DNA of 64,000 bases, taken from contig JAGOQP010000003.1 of assembly GCA_017991375.1 (NCBI GenBank), forward strand, positions 17,525-81,524. The letters run 5' to 3'. The notes below the pieces were generated by a model. That model worked only from the letters and a program-made list of their open reading frames with translations. It made no database searches and was not told where the DNA came from. Positions 4,047 through 63,617 of the stretch are shown here, one piece after another. Each line of letters begins with the position of its first letter. Positions within the stretch are counted from its first letter, which is position 1. The position numbers and the translations under genes are program-made. The stretch is from Minisyncoccota bacterium (lineage in GTDB: Bacteria > Patescibacteriota > Minisyncoccia > UBA6257 > JAGOQP01).

Positions 4047-4539
4047 CTAAAAAATCGAGTTTAGGCACTATGCCAGAAGGAGAGAAAAGACCGGACGTTG
4101 AAAATTTCATAAAGCAATGTCAACAAAAACCGTGCTATCAGTGGTAGGGTCTTTTTTACTGATAGCAACGCAGGTAACCTTTTGGATCAGTATGTCTGTT
4201 CCGAAAGGCGAAAAACGCAAAGAGTATTTTTTGCAGTAACGCAAAAAATCGAGCTTAAAAAATTGTGGTTATATTAAGGGCGTATGGTGGATGCCTTGAC
4301 ACTAAATGGCGATGAAGGACGTGGCGTAACTACGAAAACTTCGGGGAGGTGTGTAGCAACCTTTGATCCGGAGGTGTCCGAATGGGGAAACCCAATTGAG
4401 CAACCCTCAATTACTCTGGCCTCGCGCCAGAGTGCGAACCCGCTGAAGTGAAACATCTCAGTAAGCGGAGGAAAGGAGAACGAAGTTATCCCCTTAGTAG
4501 CGGCGAGCGAAACGGGGAAAGCCCAAACCAGATCGGATG

Positions 4540-4720
4540 TCGGACTTTGGGTAGCAGTATTTGGAAATCGGATCTCAGATATAAAACATCTGATATCTGA
4601 AATCCGATATCTGATATCTGAAATCCGATATCTTGATTTGGGGTAGTAAGGCATGTGCGCTATCTTGACTTACGACTTTCTACTGACGACGTATGTTGTT
4701 GGTTGTTAGTCGTTGGTTGG
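4540..4720 (+). repeat. 23S helix-9 region expansion containing tandem 21-nt repeats and a GTTGGTTGTTAG motif
   Basis: TCTGATATCTGAAATCCGATA x2 at 4589-4630, then TGTTGTTGGTTGTTAGTCGTTGGTTGG. The segment sits between the conserved blocks corresponding to E. coli positions about 130-180. Confidence 0.7.
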
Positions 4721-5644
4721 GATGTGGAAGAGTTATAAATTTTTTAGCTAGCCAAACTCCTTGGAACAGGAGACCATAGAGGGCGAACGTCCCGTAGGCG
4801 AAAGCTAAAAAACTCTTTAGCATGTGATCTTGAGTACTTCGAAAAATGAATGTTTCGGAGGAATCTTCCCGCACTATCGGGAAAGGCTAAATACATTTAG
4901 TGATCGATAGCGAACGAGTACCGTGAGGGAAAGGTGAAAAGTAGGCCGGTGAGGCCGATGAAATAGAACCTGAAACCATATGTCTACAAGGAACGGAACC
5001 TCGCAAGAGGAACCGTGTGCCTATTGAAGAATGAACCAACGAGTTTATGTGTATCGCTCGTCTAAGTTCTACGGAACGGAGGCATAGCGAAAGCGAGTCT
5101 TAAAAGGGCGATTATGGCGGTACGCATAAGACCCGAAGCCGGGTGAGCTTGCCGTGGGCAGGATGAAGTTCGTCGAAAGGCGAATGGAGGTCCGAACCGG
5201 TTGGTTGTGCAAAACCTTCGGATGACCCATGGTAAGGAGTGAAAAGCTAATCGAACTCGGTAATAGCTGGTTCTCTCCGAAATAGCTTTAGGGCTAGCGT
5301 CCAGGATTAATGTATGGGGGGTAGAGCTACTGGTTGAGAGGTAAAGGGAGAAATCTCGGCCTTTCGGTCAAACTCCGAATACCCATGCAAATCGCCTGGG
5401 CAGTCAGAACGTGGGGGCTAAGCTCCATGTTCGCGAGGGGAACAGCCCAGATCGTTGTCTAAGGTCCCCAAATCTATGCTCAGTGTAAAAGGTAGTAGTT
5501 TGCCAGAGACAGGTAGGAGGTTGGCTTAGAGGTAGCCATCCTTTAAAGAGTGTGTAACAACTCACTACTAGACGGCCGACTGCGCCGAAAATTTACCGGG
5601 GCTTAAGCATAGTACCGAAGACACGAATGTCAGTGCATTACACA

Positions 5645-6045
5645 AAGTGTTTATAAAAGGTTTTTGGAAACAATGAGAAGGATGTAGAGCAGGAGAAGCT
5701 CAAACGAGAGAGCGCTCACATGGCATGTGAGAGGTTGAGGTTTGAATCCTCACTCCTGCGCCACACCTAAAAATCAATATCGAGAGAGGGGATGTGATCG
5801 TTTAATGGTAAGACGTTCGGCGATCCTTTAGGTCTGTGCTCCCGCGCGGATCAGAGGAATCATCTTCCTCAAGGAGGCCTCCAGGAAGAAGATCTAAGAT
5901 TTGCCGAATATGAGAGTTCGAAGCTCTCGAGCGTCCCCTCTCCCGATCAATAATTGCACACCGTCACGATTATTAGTGGCTAGCCGCACTCTAAAGGTTG
6001 CTAATCTGAATCTGGGTTGGCTCCTTCTCATTGTTTCCAAAAAAT
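5645..6045 (+). other. intervening sequence or intron-like insertion in 23S helix 45
   Basis: About 400 nt are inserted between conserved ..AGTACCGAAG.. and ..GGTAGGAGAGCATTCC... The insertion is closed by a perfect 19-nt inverted repeat, TTTGGAAACAATGAGAAGG at 5663-5681 and CCTTCTCATTGTTTCCAAA at 6021-6039. No credible ORF lies inside. Confidence 0.6.
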
Positions 6046-7554
6046 AAATATTTTGTGTAGTGCATTGACGTGGTAGGAGAGCATTCCAAATGCGCTGAAG
6101 CTTGACCCGTGAGGGCGAGTGGAGTGTTTGGAAGAGAGAATGTTGGTATGAGTAACCACAACCCGCCTGAGAACGGCGGGCCCCGAAAATCCAAGGTTTC
6201 CTTCGCAATGGAAATCAGCGAAGGGTGAGGCGGTCCTAAGGCGATGGCGAAAGCCGGAGCTAATGGATAGTCGGTTAATATTCCGACCCGCCAGTATGAT
6301 TCGATGGAGGGACAAGGTGTTGTACGCGGATCGTCTTAATGGTTTGACGTCCGTGACGCGAGAATCTCTGACTGGCAAATCCGTCAGAGTTCCTTTAATG
6401 GTGCATTCGAGCGTAGCGGCGATGTCTGCTTATGGCGGGCAAAGTTCGCGGAGCACATCTTCGAGAAAAACTTCTAAGGTTAATCATATTGGCACCGTAC
6501 CGTAATCCGACACAGGTGGGTGAGGCGAGAAGCCTCAGGGGAACGAGTGATTCATCCTTAAGGAACTCGGCACAAAAGCGGCCGTAACTTCGGGATAAGG
6601 CCTTCCAGCCCTTTTGGATAATGATCGTGTTATGCGCCGACAAGATAGTGGTATGCTAGTATTTGTCGTGTAACGTTATTATTATCCAAAAGAGCTGGAC
6701 GCAGCGAAAGTCTCTCGGGTGACTGTTTACTAAAGACACAGCTCCCTGCGAACTCGTAAGAGGATGTATAGGGGGTGACGCCTGACCGATGCGAGAAGGT
6801 TAACGGTGCCGGTTGTGCCGCAAGGTACAGCTGAGTGCCCGAAGCCCTCGTCAATGTCAGCGATAACTATAATCGTTCTAAGGTAGCGCAATTCCTTTCC
6901 GGGTAAGTTCCGGAGCGCACGAAAGGCGTAACGACCTGAGAACTGTCTCAAGGATGAGCTCGGTGAAAATGCGATTCCCGTGAAGACGCGGGGTACCTGC
7001 AGCGGGACGAGAAGACCCCAGGAGCTTTACTGTAACTTGATATTGATACTAGGGCTTGGATGCGTAGCGTAGTGGGCAGGCTTTGAAGCCATGCTTTCGG
7101 GCGTGGTGGAGCCGACGATGAAACACCCATCTTTCAAATTTTAGTATCTAACCTCGAGGGCAAAAACCGCGGGGGACAGTGTCTGGTGGGCAGTTTTAAT
7201 GGGGCGTTATCCTCCCAAAAAGTAACGGAGGAGTTTAAAGGTCAGCTTAGTCCGGATGGAAATCGGACTGGACGTGTAAAGGCGTATGCTGGCTTGACGG
7301 CAAGACACACAAGTCGCGCCGACGCGAAAGCGGAACTTAGTGACCCGACGGCAATGTCATGTGTTATTTATAATGCGTGATGCTTCATAGGAAGGCCGGA
7401 GACAACGGATAAAAGCTACCCTGGGGATAACAGGCTGGTGATGCCCGAGCGTCCATAGCGACGGCATCGCTCGGCACCTCGATGTCGGCTCACCCTAGCG
7501 CGGGGCTGGAGAAGGTCCCAAGCGTTTGGCTGTTCGCCAATTAAAAGGGTACGC

Positions 7555-7588
<34 letters not shown>

Positions 7589-7632
7589 CTCTATCTGCTG
7601 CAGGCGTTGACGCTTGAGGGAGGTTGGCTCTA

Positions 7633-8388
7633 GTAAGAAATTGCTACTTTCCCGAGTAATCGGGAATGATAATATGGCTAATAACGGTGAACTCTTAACT
7701 GTTCTGGTTCGTTGATAGCTACAACTACATGTCGGTCCGTTAGTTGTGGTACAATTTACTTGAGGACCAGTAAATTAATTAAGACAATACCGTGGGAAGT
7801 CGATCAAAAACAAATCTAGCTTACATAGCTGGTTTTCTTGATGGCGATGGAAGTCTAATGATGCAAATCAAAAAGCGTACTGACGGAATCAAAAAATTCC
7901 GATTTATGCTCACTATTTGTTTGTATCAAGATTCAAGACATGATAAACCTTTGTGGTGGATCAAAAAACAATTTGGTATCGGGTATATTTCCAAGAGGAA
8001 AGATCATATAACCGAATTGAGAATTAATGGTTTTAAGCAAGTCCGAACTATTCTTGAAGAATTACTTCCGTATATTCGCTTTAAAAGAAAGCAAGCGATT
8101 GAAATAATTAAAGCTGCGCGTATTCTTGAAAATAGAAAGGTTAGTGTCAGGAATACAAAAAAACTTGTTGATTGTATAATTACTATTCAAAAAAACAATT
8201 ATGCGACCAAAAGCAAACGCAGCAAAAGTGAGTTATATAGTGTTTTAGGTTTGACCCCGTAACGACTGATTTCCAATGATATATTGGAATGAAATAGAAA
8301 CTTTTTAGTTTTTATGATATGCCATCCCCCGGCGCTTTGTCGGGGTGAAGATATAGTCTGCGCACGTAGTGATACGTGATATCGTGAC
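7633..8388 (+). mobile_element. group I intron in the 23S rRNA
   Basis: About 755 nt interrupt the universally conserved CTAGTA|CGAGAGGACC sequence. The 23S resumes at ..GACGAGAGGACCGGG at about 8388. The insertion encodes a LAGLIDADG ORF. Confidence 0.75.
7792..8262 (+). CDS. LAGLIDADG homing endonuclease (intron-encoded)
   Basis: Single LAGLIDADG motif LAYIAGFLDGDGS near the N-terminus; 156 aa; located inside the 23S intron. Confidence 0.85.
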   Translation: MGSRSKTNLAYIAGFLDGDGSLMMQIKKRTDGIKKFRFMLTICLYQDSRHDKPLWWIKKQFGIGYISKRKDHITELRINGFKQVRTILEELLPYIRFKRKQAIEIIKAARILENRKVSVRNTKKLVDCIITIQKNNYATKSKRSKSELYSVLGLTP

Positions 8389-17964: not shown

Positions 17965-18184
17965 ACAAGATAAAGCAGGACTTGATTTAATCAAATATCA
18001 GCCCCAATGTCAAAAAATAACAGACATTCGAGTTGCAAAAGTCAGTAAAATAGAGCACAATAACAGAGCAAAAATTAGATAAAAGATGAACGTTATGCGA
18101 TCAACGATGAAAGATGAATGGTTACCAGATAGTTCTGTGTTGTAAGTCGTTAGTCGTTAGTTGTTAGTTATTGGTTAACGTCCC

Positions 18185-18256: not shown

Positions 18257-18561
18257 CATAATTTTTACTCAACAACATACAACCAACAACCGACAACAAA
18301 ATAACTTCCAAAATGGGAGTTTTTATTGATTATATGTCGTCGGTTGTCAGTTAATGTGATGCTGTACTCTCCGCGTTTTCGGTGCGGCAAATCCCTCAGC
18401 AAAAATATAAACAGTAGAATCGTACCAATAAAAATTTCAAGTTCTTCTTTAGCGACGAATACTTTGAATGAATTAAATATGGAAAATTATGGAATTTTTC
18501 AATTATAGAAAAATAAGAACCCCAAGCAGACTTAATCCGCAAGGGGTTTTAGTTCTTGGGT

Positions 18562-18900: not shown

Positions 18901-19505
18901 TTAGCACCTCCTTCGTGGCTTTCCTCTGAAAAAGAACAGTTCTCTGCGGCGCTATTACCGGAGAGACTATCAAGTTCTTACGACTTGGTAGTGAATCCAT
19001 TATAGCATATATGTGTTCCAGAGTCAATAGAGCTAAAAAGCCCACATTTTTAGCTTTTTCTAGGTTTTGTATCCAATAAAAATTCTCTTTTTTACCATTT
19101 TCTCGATAGTACACCCAGTAGGAATTTTACGTCGTTCTTCGACTGCGTGTTCAGAACTCTTCAGGCACTCACGGCGTCTAAACATTTTTGTAGAACTTTT
19201 CATAGTTGTCATAAAATCGAAATACAGTAGAAACAATATAAATGTTCTTGTTGTATGTCGTCGGTCGTTAGTTGTAAGTTAGCGCTGTGCAGAATACTTG
19301 AATTAGTCCGAACCGCTTTCGCCGCCTGCGGCGGCGCGGAAGCCCCCCGCGAAAATCCGAAAAGGCGGCGGAGCCGCACGAATGACAATTTCAAGTTTTT
19401 CTTTGGCGGATTCGGATTACTGAAATTCTAACGAATTTCAGTCTTGGCGGCAAATTCTTGTTCTTTTAAAAAGATAATGGGCACCCTCTTGCGAGAATGC
19501 CCATG

Positions 19506-20141
19506 TTACGTCCGAAGGTGAGCAAGCGATCGTGCGATGTTTCGCCGAGCTTGCGTTTCGTACTTGTCGCGGAAGAACTGCGTCGCGTAGATGTCCGATC
19601 GTTCGAGGAACGACTTGAGTATCGCCGATCGTCCAGCAACAAACGCATCTTCGGAAACCCACTCGTACTCTTTGCGAACCTGCCGCTCATATTCATCGAA
19701 CCCTTCCTCGGCTTGTCCGAGAATAGAAAGGTCGATGTCCACGAGAAGCTGAACGTCGGAGTCGCTGGGGGTCGCCGCATGCTTCGTTGCCATGATGAGA
19801 TTTGTCACCGATTGTCCGAGGTTGTCGGGCAACGAAGCATTTCTCACCATTTCCACCGCGAGCGCTGCACTCCGCTCTTCGCTGTCCTTGGCCTTGGTAT
19901 CGTAGATTGCGTCGTGATACCAGAGGGCCAACTCCACTGCGTCAGGATTTACAGCGAGGTCTCGGGCTTGCTCGAGCTCATCGAGGCAATGCCCGATGTG
20001 TTGGAGCGTGTGGTACGCTCGGTGCGGTTCGGAGTATCGCGCAACAAGGTCGTTGTACGCCCCGCTCGCGCCTCCTTGCGCACCAAGGCGTTGACACATG
20101 GCTGTCCAGCGTTGTTCGAGTATCATCGTCATATTCCTCAT
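19506..20141 (-). CDS. HD-superfamily phosphohydrolase (COG4339-like)
   Basis: PHRAYHTLQHIGHCL ... LALWYHDAIYD are the conserved His/Asp motifs. The start is chosen at the ATG that makes an ATGA overlap with the upstream gene stop. Confidence 0.65.
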   Translation of the reverse strand: MRNMTMILEQRWTAMCQRLGAQGGASGAYNDLVARYSEPHRAYHTLQHIGHCLDELEQARDLAVNPDAVELALWYHDAIYDTKAKDSEERSAALAVEMVRNASLPDNLGQSVTNLIMATKHAATPSDSDVQLLVDIDLSILGQAEEGFDEYERQVRKEYEWVSEDAFVAGRSAILKSFLERSDIYATQFFRDKYETQARRNIARSLAHLRT

Positions 20142-20407
20142 TGTAGCGAGATTTTGTAGATGACACGAGGCGTGTGAGGTCCATCCTCGAACGGGCTCGC
20201 TGGCGGAGTCGCCCATTCCTTCTTCTGCTTCTCCCGGTAGACGCGAGCTTCGGCAACTTTCTTCTCCCAGATTCCTTTCGCTTCCGCGATCGCTCCGTCC
20301 TCCGTGGTCGCTTTCAGAGGAATTTCCTCGTGCTCGATCGTTCCGGCAAGACCTCCTCCGAACGTGTCTCGGTAGGTGTACACGAAGTACCATTTTCCGC
20401 GGTTCAT
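20138..20407 (-). CDS. hypothetical protein, translationally coupled to the HD hydrolase
   Basis: 89 aa, KWYFVYTYRDTFGGG...; its stop overlaps the downstream start. Confidence 0.5.
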   Translation of the reverse strand: MNRGKWYFVYTYRDTFGGGLAGTIEHEEIPLKATTEDGAIAEAKGIWEKKVAEARVYREKQKKEWATPPASPFEDGPHTPRVIYKISLQ

Positions 20408-20677
20408 GTTTTACCTCCTTTCAAGGTACGGATTTGTTTCACCTAGACACTCTGTCCAGATTTCAATTAAAGATATCATATCATATCATAAAAGTCAAGC
20501 TCACGCAAGTACAACAAAAAAACCTTTATTTCAGGCTATTTTCACTTTTAAATCCAATGTTTAAAATTTTTTTTCTGTTTTTAACAAAATCGGAAATTTC
20601 TTTTTGCCCCGAAAAATCCGTATGATTTGGCCGCCGAGCACCGCGAATCGACATCTAAATCCTTGACTTTCCCAACG

Positions 20678-20752: not shown

Positions 20753-21055
20753 ATAAAAGCTTAGAGCGTTATAGCTTATGGCGTGTAGCTCGATGCGACA
20801 GATATGAAATACTATAGTCCTGTGCTTATCAACATTACAATGATCGTCTCATATGCGCAATATACTATTTATTTGTAATGCAATTAACGGCGAACGATGA
20901 AATATGAGTGACTACTTAACCTTCGGCTGATAATTGTCGGTTCTGTTGTTGGTTGTTAGTTGTAGGTTGTTGGTTTATTATGCTCATGGTCATTTACCAT
21001 ACACTCTTTACTGCTCACTATTCACCATGCTTCGCAGTATGCTACCCTAATAGCA

Positions 21056-26102: not shown

Positions 26103-26140
26103 TTGACCCCTTTTTTCACGATCGTGAAAAAAGGGGTCAA
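26103..26140. repeat. 38-bp perfect palindrome, copy 1 of 3
   Basis: TTGACCCCTTTTTTCACGATCGTGAAAAAAGGGGTCAA; identical copies at 28205 and 63580. Confidence 0.95.
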
Positions 26141-27157: not shown

Positions 27158-28150
27158 ATGGAAAAATATCTCGTTGACGTGTTTACTGGTGTGCGGCCGT
27201 CTCACACACTCACGATTGCAAATTACATCGGTGCGATAAAGCCGATTATTGATTTACAAAAAAAAGGCGCGCGCCCAGTAGTGTTTGTCGCGGATCTTCA
27301 CGCGCTTACTGATAACGAACCAAAACAGATTGGACAGTATATACAGGAAATAGCCGCTGATTACATCGCGCTCGGACTGGATCCCGAAAAAACGAGCATT
27401 TTTACCCAGTCGGCAATCAGAGAGGAAGTGCTTACGTTAACGGCGTATCTGGCGCGATTAATATCTGTTGCCGAACTACTGCGCGTGCCAACACTCAAAG
27501 ATAAACTAAAATCAGGAGCGCGCCCCGAGACAGCTAACGCGTTGTTGTTTCTGTATCCGGTACTTATGGCGGCTGATATTTTAATTCAGCGTGCTCAGCG
27601 TGTTCCTGTGGGCGAGGACCAATTGGCGCATCTTGAAGTGTCGCGAGAACTTGCTCGACGCTTTAACCAAAAGTATAAAACAGTATTCCCATTGCCTCAG
27701 CCGTATGTCACCAAAGCATTGCGTATTATGTCGTTGGACGGTAAGGGGAAAATGAGTAAAAGCAATCCCGATGGCGCGTTTTTACTCACCGACACCCCCG
27801 CTCACATTCGCGCGAAAATAAAAAAGGCGGCAACGGCAACTGAAGGAAACATAACAGACGTTCTAAAAAGTCACTGCTCCATTATTGAGCACATCGGAAC
27901 AGAAAAAGAAAACGAACTTATGGGCGCCATCATCAAAAAGCATAAAAAAGGAGAAAAGGTTATGGGGGAGTTTAAGACATTGCTTGGAGATTGCGTAGAA
28001 CGTTTTTTGGTGGGATTTCAAGAAAAACGTGCTCAAGTATTGGGAAATAAAAATTTCGTCCCGCTGGTTTTAGAAAAAGGAAATGGTTTTGCGCGTGAAA
28101 ACGCGTCGCGCACGTTGGAGTTGGTAGAAAAAGCGATGAAAGAAAGATAA
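27158..28150 (+). CDS. trpS: tryptophanyl-tRNA synthetase
   Basis: GVRPSHTLTIANYIGA (HIGH-like), KMSKS; about 330 aa, class Ic. Confidence 0.85.
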   Translation: MEKYLVDVFTGVRPSHTLTIANYIGAIKPIIDLQKKGARPVVFVADLHALTDNEPKQIGQYIQEIAADYIALGLDPEKTSIFTQSAIREEVLTLTAYLARLISVAELLRVPTLKDKLKSGARPETANALLFLYPVLMAADILIQRAQRVPVGEDQLAHLEVSRELARRFNQKYKTVFPLPQPYVTKALRIMSLDGKGKMSKSNPDGAFLLTDTPAHIRAKIKKAATATEGNITDVLKSHCSIIEHIGTEKENELMGAIIKKHKKGEKVMGEFKTLLGDCVERFLVGFQEKRAQVLGNKNFVPLVLEKGNGFARENASRTLELVEKAMKER

Positions 28151-28204
28151 TACATGATGCGAATATACTAATAGCGCGAATCCGCCACTACCTATTATAG
28201 TAGA

Positions 28205-28242
28205 TTGACCCCTTTTTTCACGATCGTGAAAAAAGGGGTCAA
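28205..28242. repeat. 38-bp perfect palindrome, copy 2 of 3
   Basis: Identical to 26103-26140. Confidence 0.95.
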
Positions 28243-28267
28243 TCCATGGCGAACGAATGACTACGAA

Positions 28268-28293
28268 TGGGAAGGAATCATTAATCTTTCATC
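28268..28293. repeat. left inverted repeat of the pair bounding the 28.27-29.76 kb segment
   Basis: GGAATCATTAATCTTTCATCCTTAAT. Its reverse complement matches 29728-29760 across a 20-nt identical core TTAATCTTTCATCCTTAAT. Confidence 0.6.
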
Positions 28294-28498
28294 CTTAATT
28301 ATTGACCGCACAGTGCTTATCCTTAATCATTAATCGCACACTGTCGACCCATAACTCGTTCCACATTTATCATTCACGTTTCACTAAAAAGGCTATCCTT
28401 GACGGAAAGCTTTTTTTGTAGTACGTTTGTTTTTAGCATTCTGACAATGTGTCCCGAGTCAACAAACAAACCAGCCAGAGAAAGAGGGGAGAAACGCT

Positions 28499-28927
28499 AT
28501 GTCTCATTACCCAATTTCTGACTGTACCAAGTGTGACGTAGCGACTTGTATTCACAGGAGAGCTGCGTACGTAGAAAAAACAACGCAGAGATTTTCGGTT
28601 TCTCATCATCAGAGAAAACCAGTATGCGGTAGGATTTCTTTGCCACAAGTAGGTATTGAGAGCGATTGCAGAGCTGAGGTTTTCAATATGACAAAAGAGG
28701 CGCTCCGACGCATTTCTTTTCACGTCCGAGCTTCGCGTGCTCGCGAGATTTTTGTTCTTGTGTTGTTAGAGGAAATTCGTTCAACCATTGTTGGTCGTTA
28801 CCACGAGAACAGCGCGATGGGAATGATCGGCGATGAAGTGATGACGTTGTTACAGGATCTTGTGGCTCACGAAAGCTCGCAAGCTTCACCGCCATCCGCT
28901 CAAAAGAGCGACACTTCTTCTAGGTGA
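28499..28927 (+). CDS. hypothetical protein
   Basis: RBS GAGGGG 8 nt upstream; 142 aa; no recognisable family. Confidence 0.45.
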   Translation: MSHYPISDCTKCDVATCIHRRAAYVEKTTQRFSVSHHQRKPVCGRISLPQVGIESDCRAEVFNMTKEALRRISFHVRASRAREIFVLVLLEEIRSTIVGRYHENSAMGMIGDEVMTLLQDLVAHESSQASPPSAQKSDTSSR

Positions 28928-28956
28928 GCGCCTTCTAAGGAATTTCAGAGGGGGCT

Positions 28957-28992
28957 TGACAAATCTTTTGTAGTGTGCTAAGATGTATCTCG
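28957..28992 (+). promoter_or_regulatory. sigma70-type promoter driving the GC-rich locus
   Basis: TTGACA, a 17-nt spacer, then TAAGAT. Confidence 0.5.
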
Positions 28993-28994
28993 TA

Positions 28995-29697
28995 CACTAC
29001 AACGGAGGGAAGATGCACAGGCGCCCAAGAGACAACCCGTACTAGCTACTCAGGACAAGCCGCTCTGGCACGGTATTCGCTCACTCCACGGTTTGGGGGA
29101 GCGAAGCGGAAAGGGCATAGGTACTCCATCTGGGGGATGCTCTTTCGTGCCGTGCCGCCACTGCGCTACAGTGTCATCGTCGACGCTGTAGCACGGCCGC
29201 CCCATGCGGCGGCAGAGAGGAGGGCACTGTAGTGCCCATCGTCGAGGTCCGAGGTGGACCTTAGCCCGCTAAGATAGCACGATCGCCCCAAGAGGATTTT
29301 ATTAAAGTAGACCTCTTGGAGAAGGAAAGAACCAAAGGATCAGCATGTCAAAGGCGGGCGAGGGCAAAGCCCATGCGTCCCCTCCCTTCTCTACCTAAGA
29401 AGAAACGGCATGACTCACTACGAGTCGTCTGCCGTCTCTTAGGTCAAACCCTGCGGGAAGAATGCTGGCTTGCCAGGAATCTTCTCGCGACAAGCGCGAA
29501 CCTCGAAACGAAAAAGGTTCTCGGTGCCCCGTGTGTGACACGGGCGCACCGAGACCACAACCACGAGGAGCTCAACAAGAGCTTTAGTCGCCGATACAGC
29601 GAGCGCGTAGCACACTCTCGACACTTGCGGTCCGGTGGAATGATTGAAGCCGGAACCGTAGCCCTGCACCACCTGGTGTGGGGCGTTTTTTTATGCG
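28995..29697 (+). ncRNA. candidate large structured non-coding RNA (about 700 nt; identity unknown)
   Basis: GC content is far above the surroundings. It contains many near-perfect GC-rich hairpins, for example GCCGCC..GGCGGC, GGGCACTGTAGTGCCC, CCAAGAGG..CCTCTTGG and GGTGCCCCGTGTGTGACACGGGCGCACC. No ORF exceeds 130 aa, and the translations are Arg-rich nonsense. It ends in the terminator CCACCTGGTGTGGGGCG followed by TTTTTTT. Confidence 0.4.
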
Positions 29698-29727
29698 ATT
29701 AACGACGAATGTGGAAAAAGCAATTGG

Positions 29728-29760
29728 CTACAATTAATGATTAAGGATGAAAGATTAACG
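29728..29760. repeat. right inverted repeat of the pair bounding the 28.27-29.76 kb segment
   Basis: CAATTAATGATTAAGGATGAAAGATTAACGATCC, whose reverse complement is GGATCGTTAATCTTTCATCCTTAATCATTAATTG. Confidence 0.6.
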
Positions 29761-29818
29761 ATCCCCCCTGTTTTTTTAGGTTAAGGATTAATAGTCAACG
29801 ATAAACTATTTCTCTCCG

Positions 29819-30547
29819 CTATTCCCTCACCAATATCATCAGTACGATACCCGCAATAAAAATGAAAAAGTTTAATATAGATTTTCCCAAATGTTTTTCT
29901 TTTCGTATTTCTGGCATCAAATCTGAAGCGGCAATATAAATAAATCCTCCCGCGGCAAATGGCAATAAGTAGGGAAGTATATGTTCAAGAGGTGTGCGCA
30001 CTAGATATCCCGCTATACCTCCCAATACTACAAAGAGCGATACGGTGTAATTGGCAATAAGCGCTTTAAGGCGATTAAACCCCGCGTGAAGCAACACGCC
30101 AAAATCTCCAATTTCTTGAGGAATCTCATGCAACGCAATGGCGATTGTTGTGGCTATTCCGAGAGGAATGTCGACCAGAAATGAGCTTGCGATCACAAGG
30201 CCGTCTATAAAATTATGAAGTGAATCGCCAAATAAATTCATGTGGCCGAGCGTGTGTACTTCACATATTCCTTTGTGACAGTGCCGCCAGTGGAGAATTT
30301 TTTCCATTAAAAAGAAAAAAACAAAAGCTCCCAAGGTGATGATAAAAAGCATTTCGGGGTGAATTTTTTCCGCTGCCTCGGGGAGTAAATGTATAAAAGC
30401 GCCGCCAATAAGCGCTCCAGCTGAAAACGAAACAAGATAAATAGTGATAGCGGGAAGCGACTCCTCCTTTTTTACATACAAAAAAGCAACGGCGATAAAT
30501 ATACACAGCGTTATCGAAAACGTCGCTAGTAAAATAAATAGAAGCAT
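29819..30547 (-). CDS. zupT: ZIP family metal (zinc) transporter
   Basis: HNFIDGL and HEIPQEIGDFGVL motifs; multi-TM. Confidence 0.8.
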   Translation of the reverse strand: MLLFILLATFSITLCIFIAVAFLYVKKEESLPAITIYLVSFSAGALIGGAFIHLLPEAAEKIHPEMLFIITLGAFVFFFLMEKILHWRHCHKGICEVHTLGHMNLFGDSLHNFIDGLVIASSFLVDIPLGIATTIAIALHEIPQEIGDFGVLLHAGFNRLKALIANYTVSLFVVLGGIAGYLVRTPLEHILPYLLPFAAGGFIYIAASDLMPEIRKEKHLGKSILNFFIFIAGIVLMILVRE

Positions 30548-48891: not shown

Positions 48892-49182
48892 AGACCCCTT
48901 GCGGGGGAGCTGCCTTATAGATTTGTAGTGTCCACACTATAGCCAACCGATGGATGGGAACATGTGGAACAATCTATAAAGGGCTAACGCTCAAATATAG
49001 ATTAGCATAAATTCTATAAAAAACAACAAATTTTGTGGATAAGTTAAAAACGAATCCTAATATGAGCTAGGTTTTATTAGGTTTTTATAAATAGGATAGT
49101 ATTTACAGATATATAGATAATTATTGACTCCACTCTCAAAAAGAGGCACTATTTTAATATACGGGCCAAAAGCCCTATTTCT

Positions 49183-63516: not shown

Positions 63517-63579
63517 GATAGGTAAGTATGTACAAAAAGGTTGACGAAGGATAAAAAAACGGCGGGATTTTTGACCCCT

Positions 63580-63617
63580 TTTTTCACGATCGTGAAAAAA
63601 GGGGTCAAAGGGGAGCT
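63580..63617. repeat. 38-bp perfect palindrome, copy 3 of 3
   Basis: Identical to 26103-26140. Confidence 0.95.

Follow-up and report, generated by a model that had tools for sequence, protein, structure and literature searches.

What is encoded by a GC-rich stretch of about 700 nucleotides (nt) that separates trpS from a convergent ZIP transporter gene in a bacterium of the Patescibacteria, or Candidate Phyla Radiation (CPR)? The stretch lies in 64,000 nt of contig JAGOQP010000003.1 from a Minisyncoccota bacterium (hereafter the window, to the whole of which all window-wide numbers refer), and the original prediction made from this sequence had proposed that it specifies a novel large structured non-coding RNA (ncRNA), possibly carried on a non-autonomous mobile cassette. 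We have compared the locus with related contigs and loci, which are identified by L numbers. Our best explanation, to which we give a probability of roughly 0.6, is that the locus represents an undescribed family of vertically inherited, independently transcribed, multi-domain RNAs of ~630–720 nt, probably dual-function, in a small CPR clade. The cassette part of the proposal is not supported by the comparison. Coordinates of all features are collected in Table 1.

The transcription unit and its distribution

The interval 28995–29697 (703 nt) has a GC content of 0.579 and is the richest 700-nt stretch of the 64 kb; the predicted value of ~58 % was therefore correct, whereas the background of ~40 % was not, the window as a whole standing at 0.439. 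The predicted promoter and clean intrinsic terminator were both reproduced. The promoter matches the consensus at 10 of 12 positions and has in addition a TG extension, and its hexamers and spacing are common to L003 and L091, the -10 box of L003 being TAGGAT. The terminator is a GC-rich stem of 10 base pairs (bp) at 29661–29684 followed by T7, and is kept in both relatives, with L091 changing the 5' strand alone to convert a U.G pair to C-G and a G.U pair to A-U. Conserved promoter and terminator delimit the predicted RNA unit. Flanking the -10 box and the presumed transcription start is an inverted repeat of the form TTGTAGTGTRC-N13-GTACACTACAA, both arms of which, with their 13-nt spacing, are kept in all three lineages and which is perfect in L091. 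It looks like an operator, a candidate site for a putative dimeric repressor.

Relatives were reached by two routes. Two database relatives of ORF142, an orphan open reading frame (ORF) between trpS and the RNA promoter, led to the near-identical contigs L001 and L002 (99.9 %) and to L003, which is 87.6 % identical to the window over 1288 nt, spans the whole locus together with the 3' end of the ZIP gene and holds the RNA at 346–1065 (720 nt). Among the Logan runs that contain near-identical contigs are ERR3438381/2, ERR7015365, ERR14964774, SRR11235434 and SRR11088371, and the relatives occur in DRR438505 and SRR12799666/8/9. The nearest ZIP homologue, P0004 (79 % identical), led to L091, L092 and L093, all three identical at the locus. 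In L091 ZIP and trpS are again neighbours in this order, and the ~800-nt gap between them holds a diverged copy of the RNA (3723–3097, minus strand, 627 nt; 66–70 % identity; nhmmer E = 5e-73), with ~36 nt from the trpS stop codon to the -35 box. The RNA therefore sits in the slot between trpS and ZIP in all three lineages (window, L003 and L091), and in each of them the ZIP gene converges on it from ~125 nt downstream.

Beyond these lineages the searches were negative. The ZIP-anchored search gave only P0003, from the window, and P0004 in the RNA-bearing clade; other ZIP homologues, of no more than 72 % identity, do not belong to that clade, and P0006 and P0007 come from loci that lack both the synteny and the RNA. 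The nearest GTDB species representatives, which belong to Falkowbacteria or other Patescibacteria, share 55–60 % TrpS identity. In 80 TrpS-anchored loci from CPR and other genomes (best TrpS 55–60 %) there was no nhmmer or blastn match, no comparable GC-rich gap and no match to two domain covariance models. One scan of JGI metagenomes with the invariant 20-mer TGGGGGAGCGAAGCGGAAAG gave four matches, all of them chance matches to an unrelated repeat, (GGAGCGAAGCGGAAAG)n. On the JGI freshwater contigs L097 (7291–7336), L099 (~2210) and L100 (~1336), which come from an unrelated, low-GC organism, two to four tandem copies of GGAGCGAAGCGGAAAG sit in a long imperfect palindrome between A7T8 tracts. 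Five scans of viral contigs with different conserved blocks returned nothing, and blastn against phage and plasmid collections returned only a 38-nt terminator-like match in a Vibrio plasmid. Open stretches of at least 40 amino acids (aa) from the window and L091 RNAs, joined into one query, had no match at E <= 1 among 5.8 billion protein clusters, a weak negative in that the index also missed L001's own 109-aa call. No paralogue or internal duplication of the RNA was found in the window. As far as sequence comparison can tell, the RNA gene is vertically inherited and is confined, in accessible data, to a small clade of the CPR.

Nor does the RNA belong to a known family. Covariance searches with the 4227 models of Rfam 15 were run at gathering thresholds and at a permissive E <= 10. 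At gathering thresholds the search of the whole window gave zero matches in 28100–29900, and at E <= 10 only sub-threshold noise was seen there (mir-1426, 24.5 bits, on the 38-bp palindrome; NsiR1, 20.4 bits, on the terminator); the homologues L003 and L091 were likewise without a match. The comparison that the original prediction had suggested, with GOLLD, ROOL, HEARO, OLE and raiA among the models, has thus been made and no family was matched, and its statement that the locus resembles none of RNase P, tmRNA, SRP, 6S RNA and group I/II introns is upheld. T-box and riboswitch families were also without a match. ARAGORN placed seven tRNAs elsewhere in the window, none in the RNA locus, and found no tmRNA.

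Table 1. Features of the RNA locus and its surroundings (window coordinates; a full stop marks features without assigned strand)
Feature	Position	Strand	Description
38-bp perfect palindrome	28205–28242	.	TTGACCCCTTTTTTCACGATCGTGAAAAAAGGGGTCAA; other exact copies at 26103–26140 and 63571–63608; intergenic
Left inverted-repeat arm	28274–28303	.	Overlaps two tandem 28-nt units
ORF142 (orphan ORF)	28499–28927	+	Between trpS and RNA promoter; lineage-specific
Sigma-70-type promoter	28956–28984	+	-35 TTGACA at 28956–28961, 17-nt spacer, extended -10 TG-n-TAAGAT at 28979–28984
Operator-like 11-bp inverted repeat	28968–29002	.	TTGTAGTGTGC at 28968–28978, N13, GTACACTACAA at 28992–29002
RNA gene (~700 nt)	28991–29692	+	Start placed from the -10 box; end at the terminator T-tract
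Shine-Dalgarno-like GGAGG	29004–29008	+	4–7 nt before the mini-ORF ATG; in all three versions
Mini-ORF	29013–29045	+	ATG CAC AGG CGC CCA AGA GAC AAC CCG TAC TAG (MHRRPRDNPY*)
Domain A	29062–29214	+	Three-way junction closed by GGCACGG/CCGUGCC, then hairpins P6 and P7
Domain B	29262–29375	+	Closing helix GCCCGCU/GGCGGGC around two stacked helices
CU-rich 'anti-SD' segment	29375–29385	+	GCGUC-CCCUCC; predicted partner of Shine-Dalgarno sequence and AUG, closing a ~370-nt 5' domain
Domain C	29388–29574	+	Long hairpin P14, hairpins P15 and P16, 18-bp near-perfect hairpin
3' extension	29575–29660	+	Two to three hairpins; in window and L003, absent from L091
Intrinsic terminator	29661–29692	+	GCCCUGCACC-ACCU-GGUGUGGGGC, then U7
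Right inverted-repeat arm	29736–29765	.	GATNAAN-type heptads; spacer between terminator and ZIP stop codon

Conserved structure of the RNA body

The hairpin density noted in the original prediction is borne out by the full-length fold, the minimum free energy (MFE) of the plus strand being -319.9 kcal/mol, whereas dinucleotide shuffles gave -252 +/- 7 (z = -9.4). When the three versions of the RNA were folded separately, the MFE structures had one architecture in common, namely domain A, two variable hairpins, domain B, a GGGC-AAA-GCCC hairpin, domain C, the 3' extension and the terminator. When RNAalifold was applied to whole-length alignments, whether made with MAFFT or anchored, the local hairpins came out stably whereas pairs over long distances could not be relied on, and the RNA was therefore analysed domain by domain. 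Pairing was scored on sequence-based alignments of the domains, with the 3' partners slid by 1–3 columns as a control. For the 145 proposed pairs, 91–94 % of cells held standard pairs as against 28–53 % after sliding, and 13 pairs were double-compensatory as against 0–2 in each slid control. The conserved architecture that the original prediction had asked of homologues was accordingly found in all three versions.

The signal is clearest in domain B (32 pairs; 91 % of cells paired versus 28–52 % slid), where seven pairs are double-compensatory, as against 0–1 in the slid controls, and where three of 500 shuffles reach the observed score. Besides the two stacked helices it encloses a long hairpin, whose AU-rich loop is variable, and an internal loop rich in A residues; its end is the GGGC-AAA-GCCC element, and it overlaps most of an invariant 24-mer (29356–29379). 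L001 and L002 carry one extra G at ~29360 in this otherwise invariant 24-mer (GGGCG^GAGGGC), which is either a strain polymorphism or a homopolymer error in a metagenome-assembled genome. Domain A (55 pairs; 92 % versus 37–53 %) contains an invariant 22-mer, TTTGGGGGAGCGAAGCGGAAAG, at 29092–29113. Its hairpin P6 is a perfect stem of 11–12 bp with a 6-nt loop in all three versions, yet the stem sequence differs in each, and in L003 matched 2-nt deletions have occurred on both strands. Domain C (58 pairs; 94 % versus 37–43 %) has three double-compensatory pairs, and the strands of its 18-bp hairpin (29520–29535 and 29538–29553) are invariant in all three versions. The 3' extension is the part that varies most between the window and L003.

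Overall, the RNA shares an identity of 0.66 with that of L091, compared with 0.49 at third codon positions in trpS and ZIP and 0.38 in the neighbouring stretch between terminator and ZIP, and the invariant runs across the versions are 24, 22, 16 and 16 nt long. Among the helix cells G.U outnumbers A.C by 35 to 10, and many one-sided changes convert G-C to G.U; we therefore assign the functional structure to the RNA of the plus strand, the strand to which the promoter and terminator also point.

The same comparison yielded nothing of the pattern expected of a protein gene. Substitutions between the window and L091, counted by codon position, were 66/73/63 in the RNA, as against 40/17/168 in trpS and 50/20/124 in ZIP; the RNA has undergone 12 indels (of 2, 1, 4, 2, 3, 16, 10, 4, 11, 1, 1 and 3 nt), mostly not multiples of three, while the gaps in trpS and ZIP are in-frame only. 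No reading frame is open across all three RNA versions, the longest switching both strand and frame. The longest internal ORF in the locus, at 128 aa within an open stretch of 143–144 codons, agrees with the earlier statement that none exceeds 130 aa. The internal ORFs belong to no Pfam or PHROGs family, and the ORFs of 89–139 aa that gene callers put on the locus are spurious. The codon-periodicity check proposed to exclude coding has thus been run, with neither periodicity nor a shared frame emerging. On these grounds we consider that the RNA body is under selection for base-pairing and not for reading frame. The candidacy of the locus as a novel large structured ncRNA is strengthened accordingly: it has no Rfam match, its homologues keep promoter, terminator and hairpins, and the changes between them are compensatory.

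The mini-ORF and the proposed function

The description of the locus as apparently non-coding holds for this body; it does not hold for the 5' end, where a mini-ORF of 9–10 codons begins 22 nt downstream of the presumed transcription start. In L003 the same peptide is specified despite the changes CCA>CCG and TAG>TAA, and in L091 the product is MRRPRDNPY*, with AGA>CGT, AAC>AAT, TAC>TAT, CCA>CCG and a one-codon indel. When seven-codon segments that differ by at least five nucleotides between the window and L091 were compared (458 segments, both strands and all frames), PRDNPY* was the only one to keep seven of seven residues. The peptide M(H)RRPRDNPY thus appears to be conserved at the peptide level through synonymous changes. 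The predictions put both the Shine-Dalgarno (SD) sequence and the AUG into base pairs in each of the three versions. In the window and L003 the predicted partner is the 'anti-SD' segment directly after the invariant 24-mer (P >= 0.83 for the SD:anti-SD helix). Occlusion of the start site may therefore be a theme shared by the three RNAs, whereas the specific, predicted SD:anti-SD helix is not conserved.

Could the peptide itself be the product? The transcript would then be an mRNA for the Arg/Pro-rich M(H)RRPRDNPY, and the remaining ~600 nt would serve as a stabilising or translation-tuning 3' untranslated region (UTR). The peptide's persistence through synonymous changes, the conserved SD and ATG, and a masked start of the kind found in translationally regulated mRNAs are all compatible with such an mRNA. 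However, invariant blocks of 16–24 nt and compensatory pairing in several domains exceed the needs of a stabilising 3' UTR, and a UTR of 600 nt for an ORF of 30 nt would be extravagant in a streamlined CPR genome. We consider this reading unlikely.

A second way of giving the mini-ORF the leading role is to regard it as the leader peptide of a cis-acting attenuator, in which a ribosome on the Arg-rich mini-ORF would decide between termination and read-through into the convergent ZIP gene, the read-through transcript acting on ZIP as antisense RNA or by transcriptional interference. Known leader-peptide transcription attenuators are of the trpL type or have ribosome-arrest leaders. The locus shares with them a very short, SD-led ORF rich in one residue (three Arg codons), with structure and then an intrinsic terminator after it; the convergent ZIP gene, which has the same position in every lineage, also speaks for this reading. 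It differs from them in three respects. There is no same-strand gene downstream, the convergent ZIP gene following the terminator in all lineages; the ~600 nt of conserved structure between ORF and terminator contain more than 15 helices, more than any attenuator needs; and no conserved alternative pairing of anti-terminator and terminator was seen, the terminator being strong and conserved. Because no same-strand gene follows and so much conserved structure intervenes, we judge attenuation quite improbable, with regulated read-through antisense to ZIP a minor possibility.

In the dual-function reading that we prefer, the folded body of the transcript would do its main job in trans, as a protein-binding scaffold or as a regulatory or catalytic RNA, like other large ornate bacterial RNAs. 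Transcription would probably be under the control of a dimeric repressor bound to the 11-bp palindrome that brackets the -10 box. The mini-ORF would have its ribosome-binding site and its start codon masked by RNA structure; in the window and L003 this mask would be the long-range SD:anti-SD helix closing the 5' domain. With the start so masked, ribosomes translating the mini-ORF would compete with full folding of the RNA, and this competition could couple the activity or stability of the RNA to translation status. Carried further, and offered only as a tentative proposal, the RNA may be the founding member of a new CPR class, a repressor-controlled ornate RNA of ~0.7 kb whose folding or activity is gated by ribosomes on the Arg/Pro-rich mini-ORF, the start of which the RNA's own anti-SD segment masks, and whose body is a lineage-specific ribonucleoprotein scaffold or ribozyme.

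The large ornate ncRNAs OLE, ROOL, GOLLD and raiA are Rfam families of unknown or emerging function (PMC12286853, PMC10861870, PMC12054373). Like them, the RNA described here is a stand-alone gene of 600–800 nt, much more GC-rich and more structured than its surroundings, with many hairpins in several domains, conserved blocks between covarying helices and no obvious cis target. Unlike them, it is present in three lineages of one CPR clade, theirs being found in hundreds to thousands of species; it has a 5' mini-ORF whose peptide is conserved; its helices are longer and have fewer imperfections; and it matches none of them in sequence or structure. It also lacks the phage or prophage context of ROOL and GOLLD and the associated oap-like genes of OLE.

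For the dual-function aspect the relevant comparisons are RNAIII/hld of Staphylococcus aureus and SR1/SR1P of Bacillus subtilis (PMC12612679, PMC12310071; SR1, PMC8501984). The features by which such RNAs are recognised, a short ORF, a ribosome-binding site and peptide-level selection, are found in the mini-ORF described here, and the RNA shares with these two its organization as an independent structured transcript with a short SD-led 5' ORF, a large non-coding remainder and an intrinsic terminator. It is not homologous to either, its ORF has 9–10 codons as against 26–43, and, in contrast to them, a duplex scan found it no base-pairing target. RNAIII, which is ~0.5 kb long and has many stem-loops, is the dual-function RNA closest to it in size and layout.

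Several observations weigh against our reading. Only three sequences are available and two of the lineages are close, so that the covariation is supportive rather than statistically decisive; shuffle controls reached the observed scores in 3–66 of 500 trials, depending on the domain. Many of the helices are long with few imperfections, a property less typical of RNAs that act as catalysts or bind ligands. The transcription start at ~28991 is placed from the -10 box. In L091 the SD:anti-SD helix is only weakly predicted (P ~0.13), and the AUG is covered by local hairpins. When all translation-initiation regions of the window and L091 were scanned with RNAduplex, none stood out and no orthologue was common to the two sets, and no gene for a partner protein is evident. 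Finally, no member of the family was seen outside the clade in the 80 syntenic CPR loci or the JGI metagenomes, and the RNA could still be a young, fast-evolving element of marginal function.

Flanking elements, other features and significance

The original prediction had placed the RNA, together with ORF142, on a 1.5-kb segment bounded by inverted repeats and possibly mobile. The inverted pair is real, with arms at the positions given in Table 1 that are complementary at 27 of 30 positions, well beyond the best inverted repeat in 200 composition-preserving shuffles of the intergenic region (22 of 30); its exact core, TTAATCTTTCATCCTTAAT, is however 19 nt long and not 20. In strain L001 the sequence becomes homologous to the window again exactly at 28275, at the outer edge of the left arm, and six independent Logan contigs break inside the right arm; both observations speak for a non-autonomous cassette. 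The mobile segment is nevertheless not supported, because L091 carries the RNA in the same trpS–ZIP slot without ORF142 and without the arms. The right arm, conserved in L003, is among the parts that L091 lacks. Of the hallmarks of elements resembling miniature inverted-repeat transposable elements, terminal inverted repeats were present, whereas target-site duplication and multiple copies or polymorphism were not: no direct repeat is common to the sequences GAATGGGAAG and CCCTGTTTTT just outside the arms, the segment contains no transposase, integrase or other recombinase recognized by Pfam or PHROGs, and the search that had been suggested for further bounded copies showed the window to hold no second one, with the same result for 1.43 Mb of related loci and for the collections of phages, plasmids and viruses. 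What does recur, as degenerate copies at 18100, 44399 and 50693, is the core of the arms, a generic AT-rich intergenic motif of heptad type. We regard a cassette as very unlikely.

The arms are indeed two oppositely oriented instances of heptad-like, low-complexity motifs in which the spacers of the window are rich (GATGAAAGATTAACGAT, CGTTAGT(C/T)GTTAGT and ACGACGAATG); sites of such motifs lie at 18100–18180, 18270–18300, 19250–19290, 20880–20960, 28250–28346, 29700–29805, 44399 and 50693, and they could be protein-binding arrays or bent DNA. At the right arm, eight independent Logan contigs from six samples (L001, L002 and L085–L090) end within 17 nt (29733–29749), six of them approaching from ZIP and two from the RNA, which suggests a copy of the repeat elsewhere in the genome or a point of strain-level rearrangement. 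Two variants of the right flank were observed, GATCCCCCCTG...TTAAGGATT and GATTCCCCCCTG...TTAGGGATT. The 38-bp palindrome that had been noted at 28205 was reproduced as a perfect palindrome with two further exact copies, and may act as a bidirectional terminator. Its copy after trpS is missing in strain L001, and the element has therefore either moved or been lost recently; De Bruijn contigs break off within the palindrome.

ORF142, described earlier as an orphan of 142 aa, remains one. It has no Pfam or PHROGs family, a search of 5.8 billion clusters and of 1.84 billion representatives brought up only strain variants of ORF142 itself, and it is absent from L091. Compared with L003, its substitutions by codon position are 8/5/10, and 11 of 87 residues differ. 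On this sequence record it is a true orphan under weak constraint and is probably not part of the RNA unit. The same properties (no family, no homologue outside the lineage, weak constraint, absence from L091) led us to reject it as a partner protein or transposase. A frameshift of ORF142 in L001 and L002 was also considered and rejected, the sole indel being the extra G inside the RNA and the 95-aa call reflecting another start codon. Upstream of ORF142, at 28291–28346, are tandem 28-nt units (ATCCTTAAT[T/C]ATT[G/A]A[C/T]CGCACA[G/C]TG...) with promoter-like sites at 28302 and 28344, which could form a promoter or operator array for this ORF. The simplest account takes ORF142, the arms and the palindrome, which is a dispersed element, for lineage-specific additions to the spacers flanking an RNA gene older than they are, and not for parts of the RNA unit.

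Two further readings deny the locus an RNA product altogether. It might act as DNA, as an array of replication or recombination sites or a cluster of palindromes like repetitive extragenic palindromic elements. The minus strand does fold as well as the plus strand (z = -12.6), and the genome contains other perfect palindromes, but the G.U excess and the G-C to G.U changes fit plus-strand RNA only, promoter and terminator are correctly oriented, and the hairpins are not repeats of one another, so that this possibility is hardly credible. The idea of a horizontally acquired GC-rich protein gene or decaying pseudogene, which a GC content 14 points over the window average, the ORFs placed by gene callers and the coding appearance of another GC-rich island (19.3–20.4 kb) might encourage, is effectively refuted already by the missing codon periodicity, the non-triplet indels, the lack of any conserved frame or of any Pfam or PHROGs family among the ORFs, the conservation well above neutral with compensatory pairing, and a promoter and terminator of its own that would not persist beside a pseudogene in three lineages.

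Elsewhere in the window, that second GC-rich island (~19300–20450, GC 0.57) lies between two tRNA-Arg genes and contains two overlapping ORFs without a match in Pfam, one of 295 aa (19506–20393, minus strand) and one of 89 aa. The larger ORF has the motifs HTLQH and WYHDAIYD, which we take to be HD-phosphohydrolase-like, and the island is probably a horizontally acquired coding island unrelated to the RNA. Within the 23S rRNA gene (4264–7650), which at 3387 nt compared with a 2925-nt model contains large insertions, e.g. around 4540–4730, both ARAGORN and Rfam (53.5 bits) place a gene resembling tRNA-Ala(GGC), its CCA end encoded, at 5689–5763; an rRNA intervening sequence with a tRNA inside it is a possible explanation. 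A DUF3800-V RNA (RF02964) lies at 48902–48997 on the minus strand, with 45.1 bits against a gathering threshold of 37.4.

Large structured bacterial RNAs beyond the universal set (rRNA, RNase P, tmRNA and SRP RNA) are rare, and each new class, such as OLE, ROOL, GOLLD and raiA, has opened unexpected biology. The CPR, or Patescibacteria, with their tiny, streamlined genomes, are almost unexplored for ncRNAs, and our literature search found no paper on such an RNA in these bacteria. The importance of the RNA is limited because its known distribution is very narrow. A practical lesson can nevertheless be drawn from it, in that gene callers put spurious 'hypothetical proteins' on an RNA gene. In genomes of ~1 Mb, 0.7 kb of non-coding sequence is costly. 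If our reading is true, the RNA would offer a compact system for studying the coupling of translation to RNA folding, and would be a candidate for a lineage-specific ribonucleoprotein in episymbiotic bacteria.

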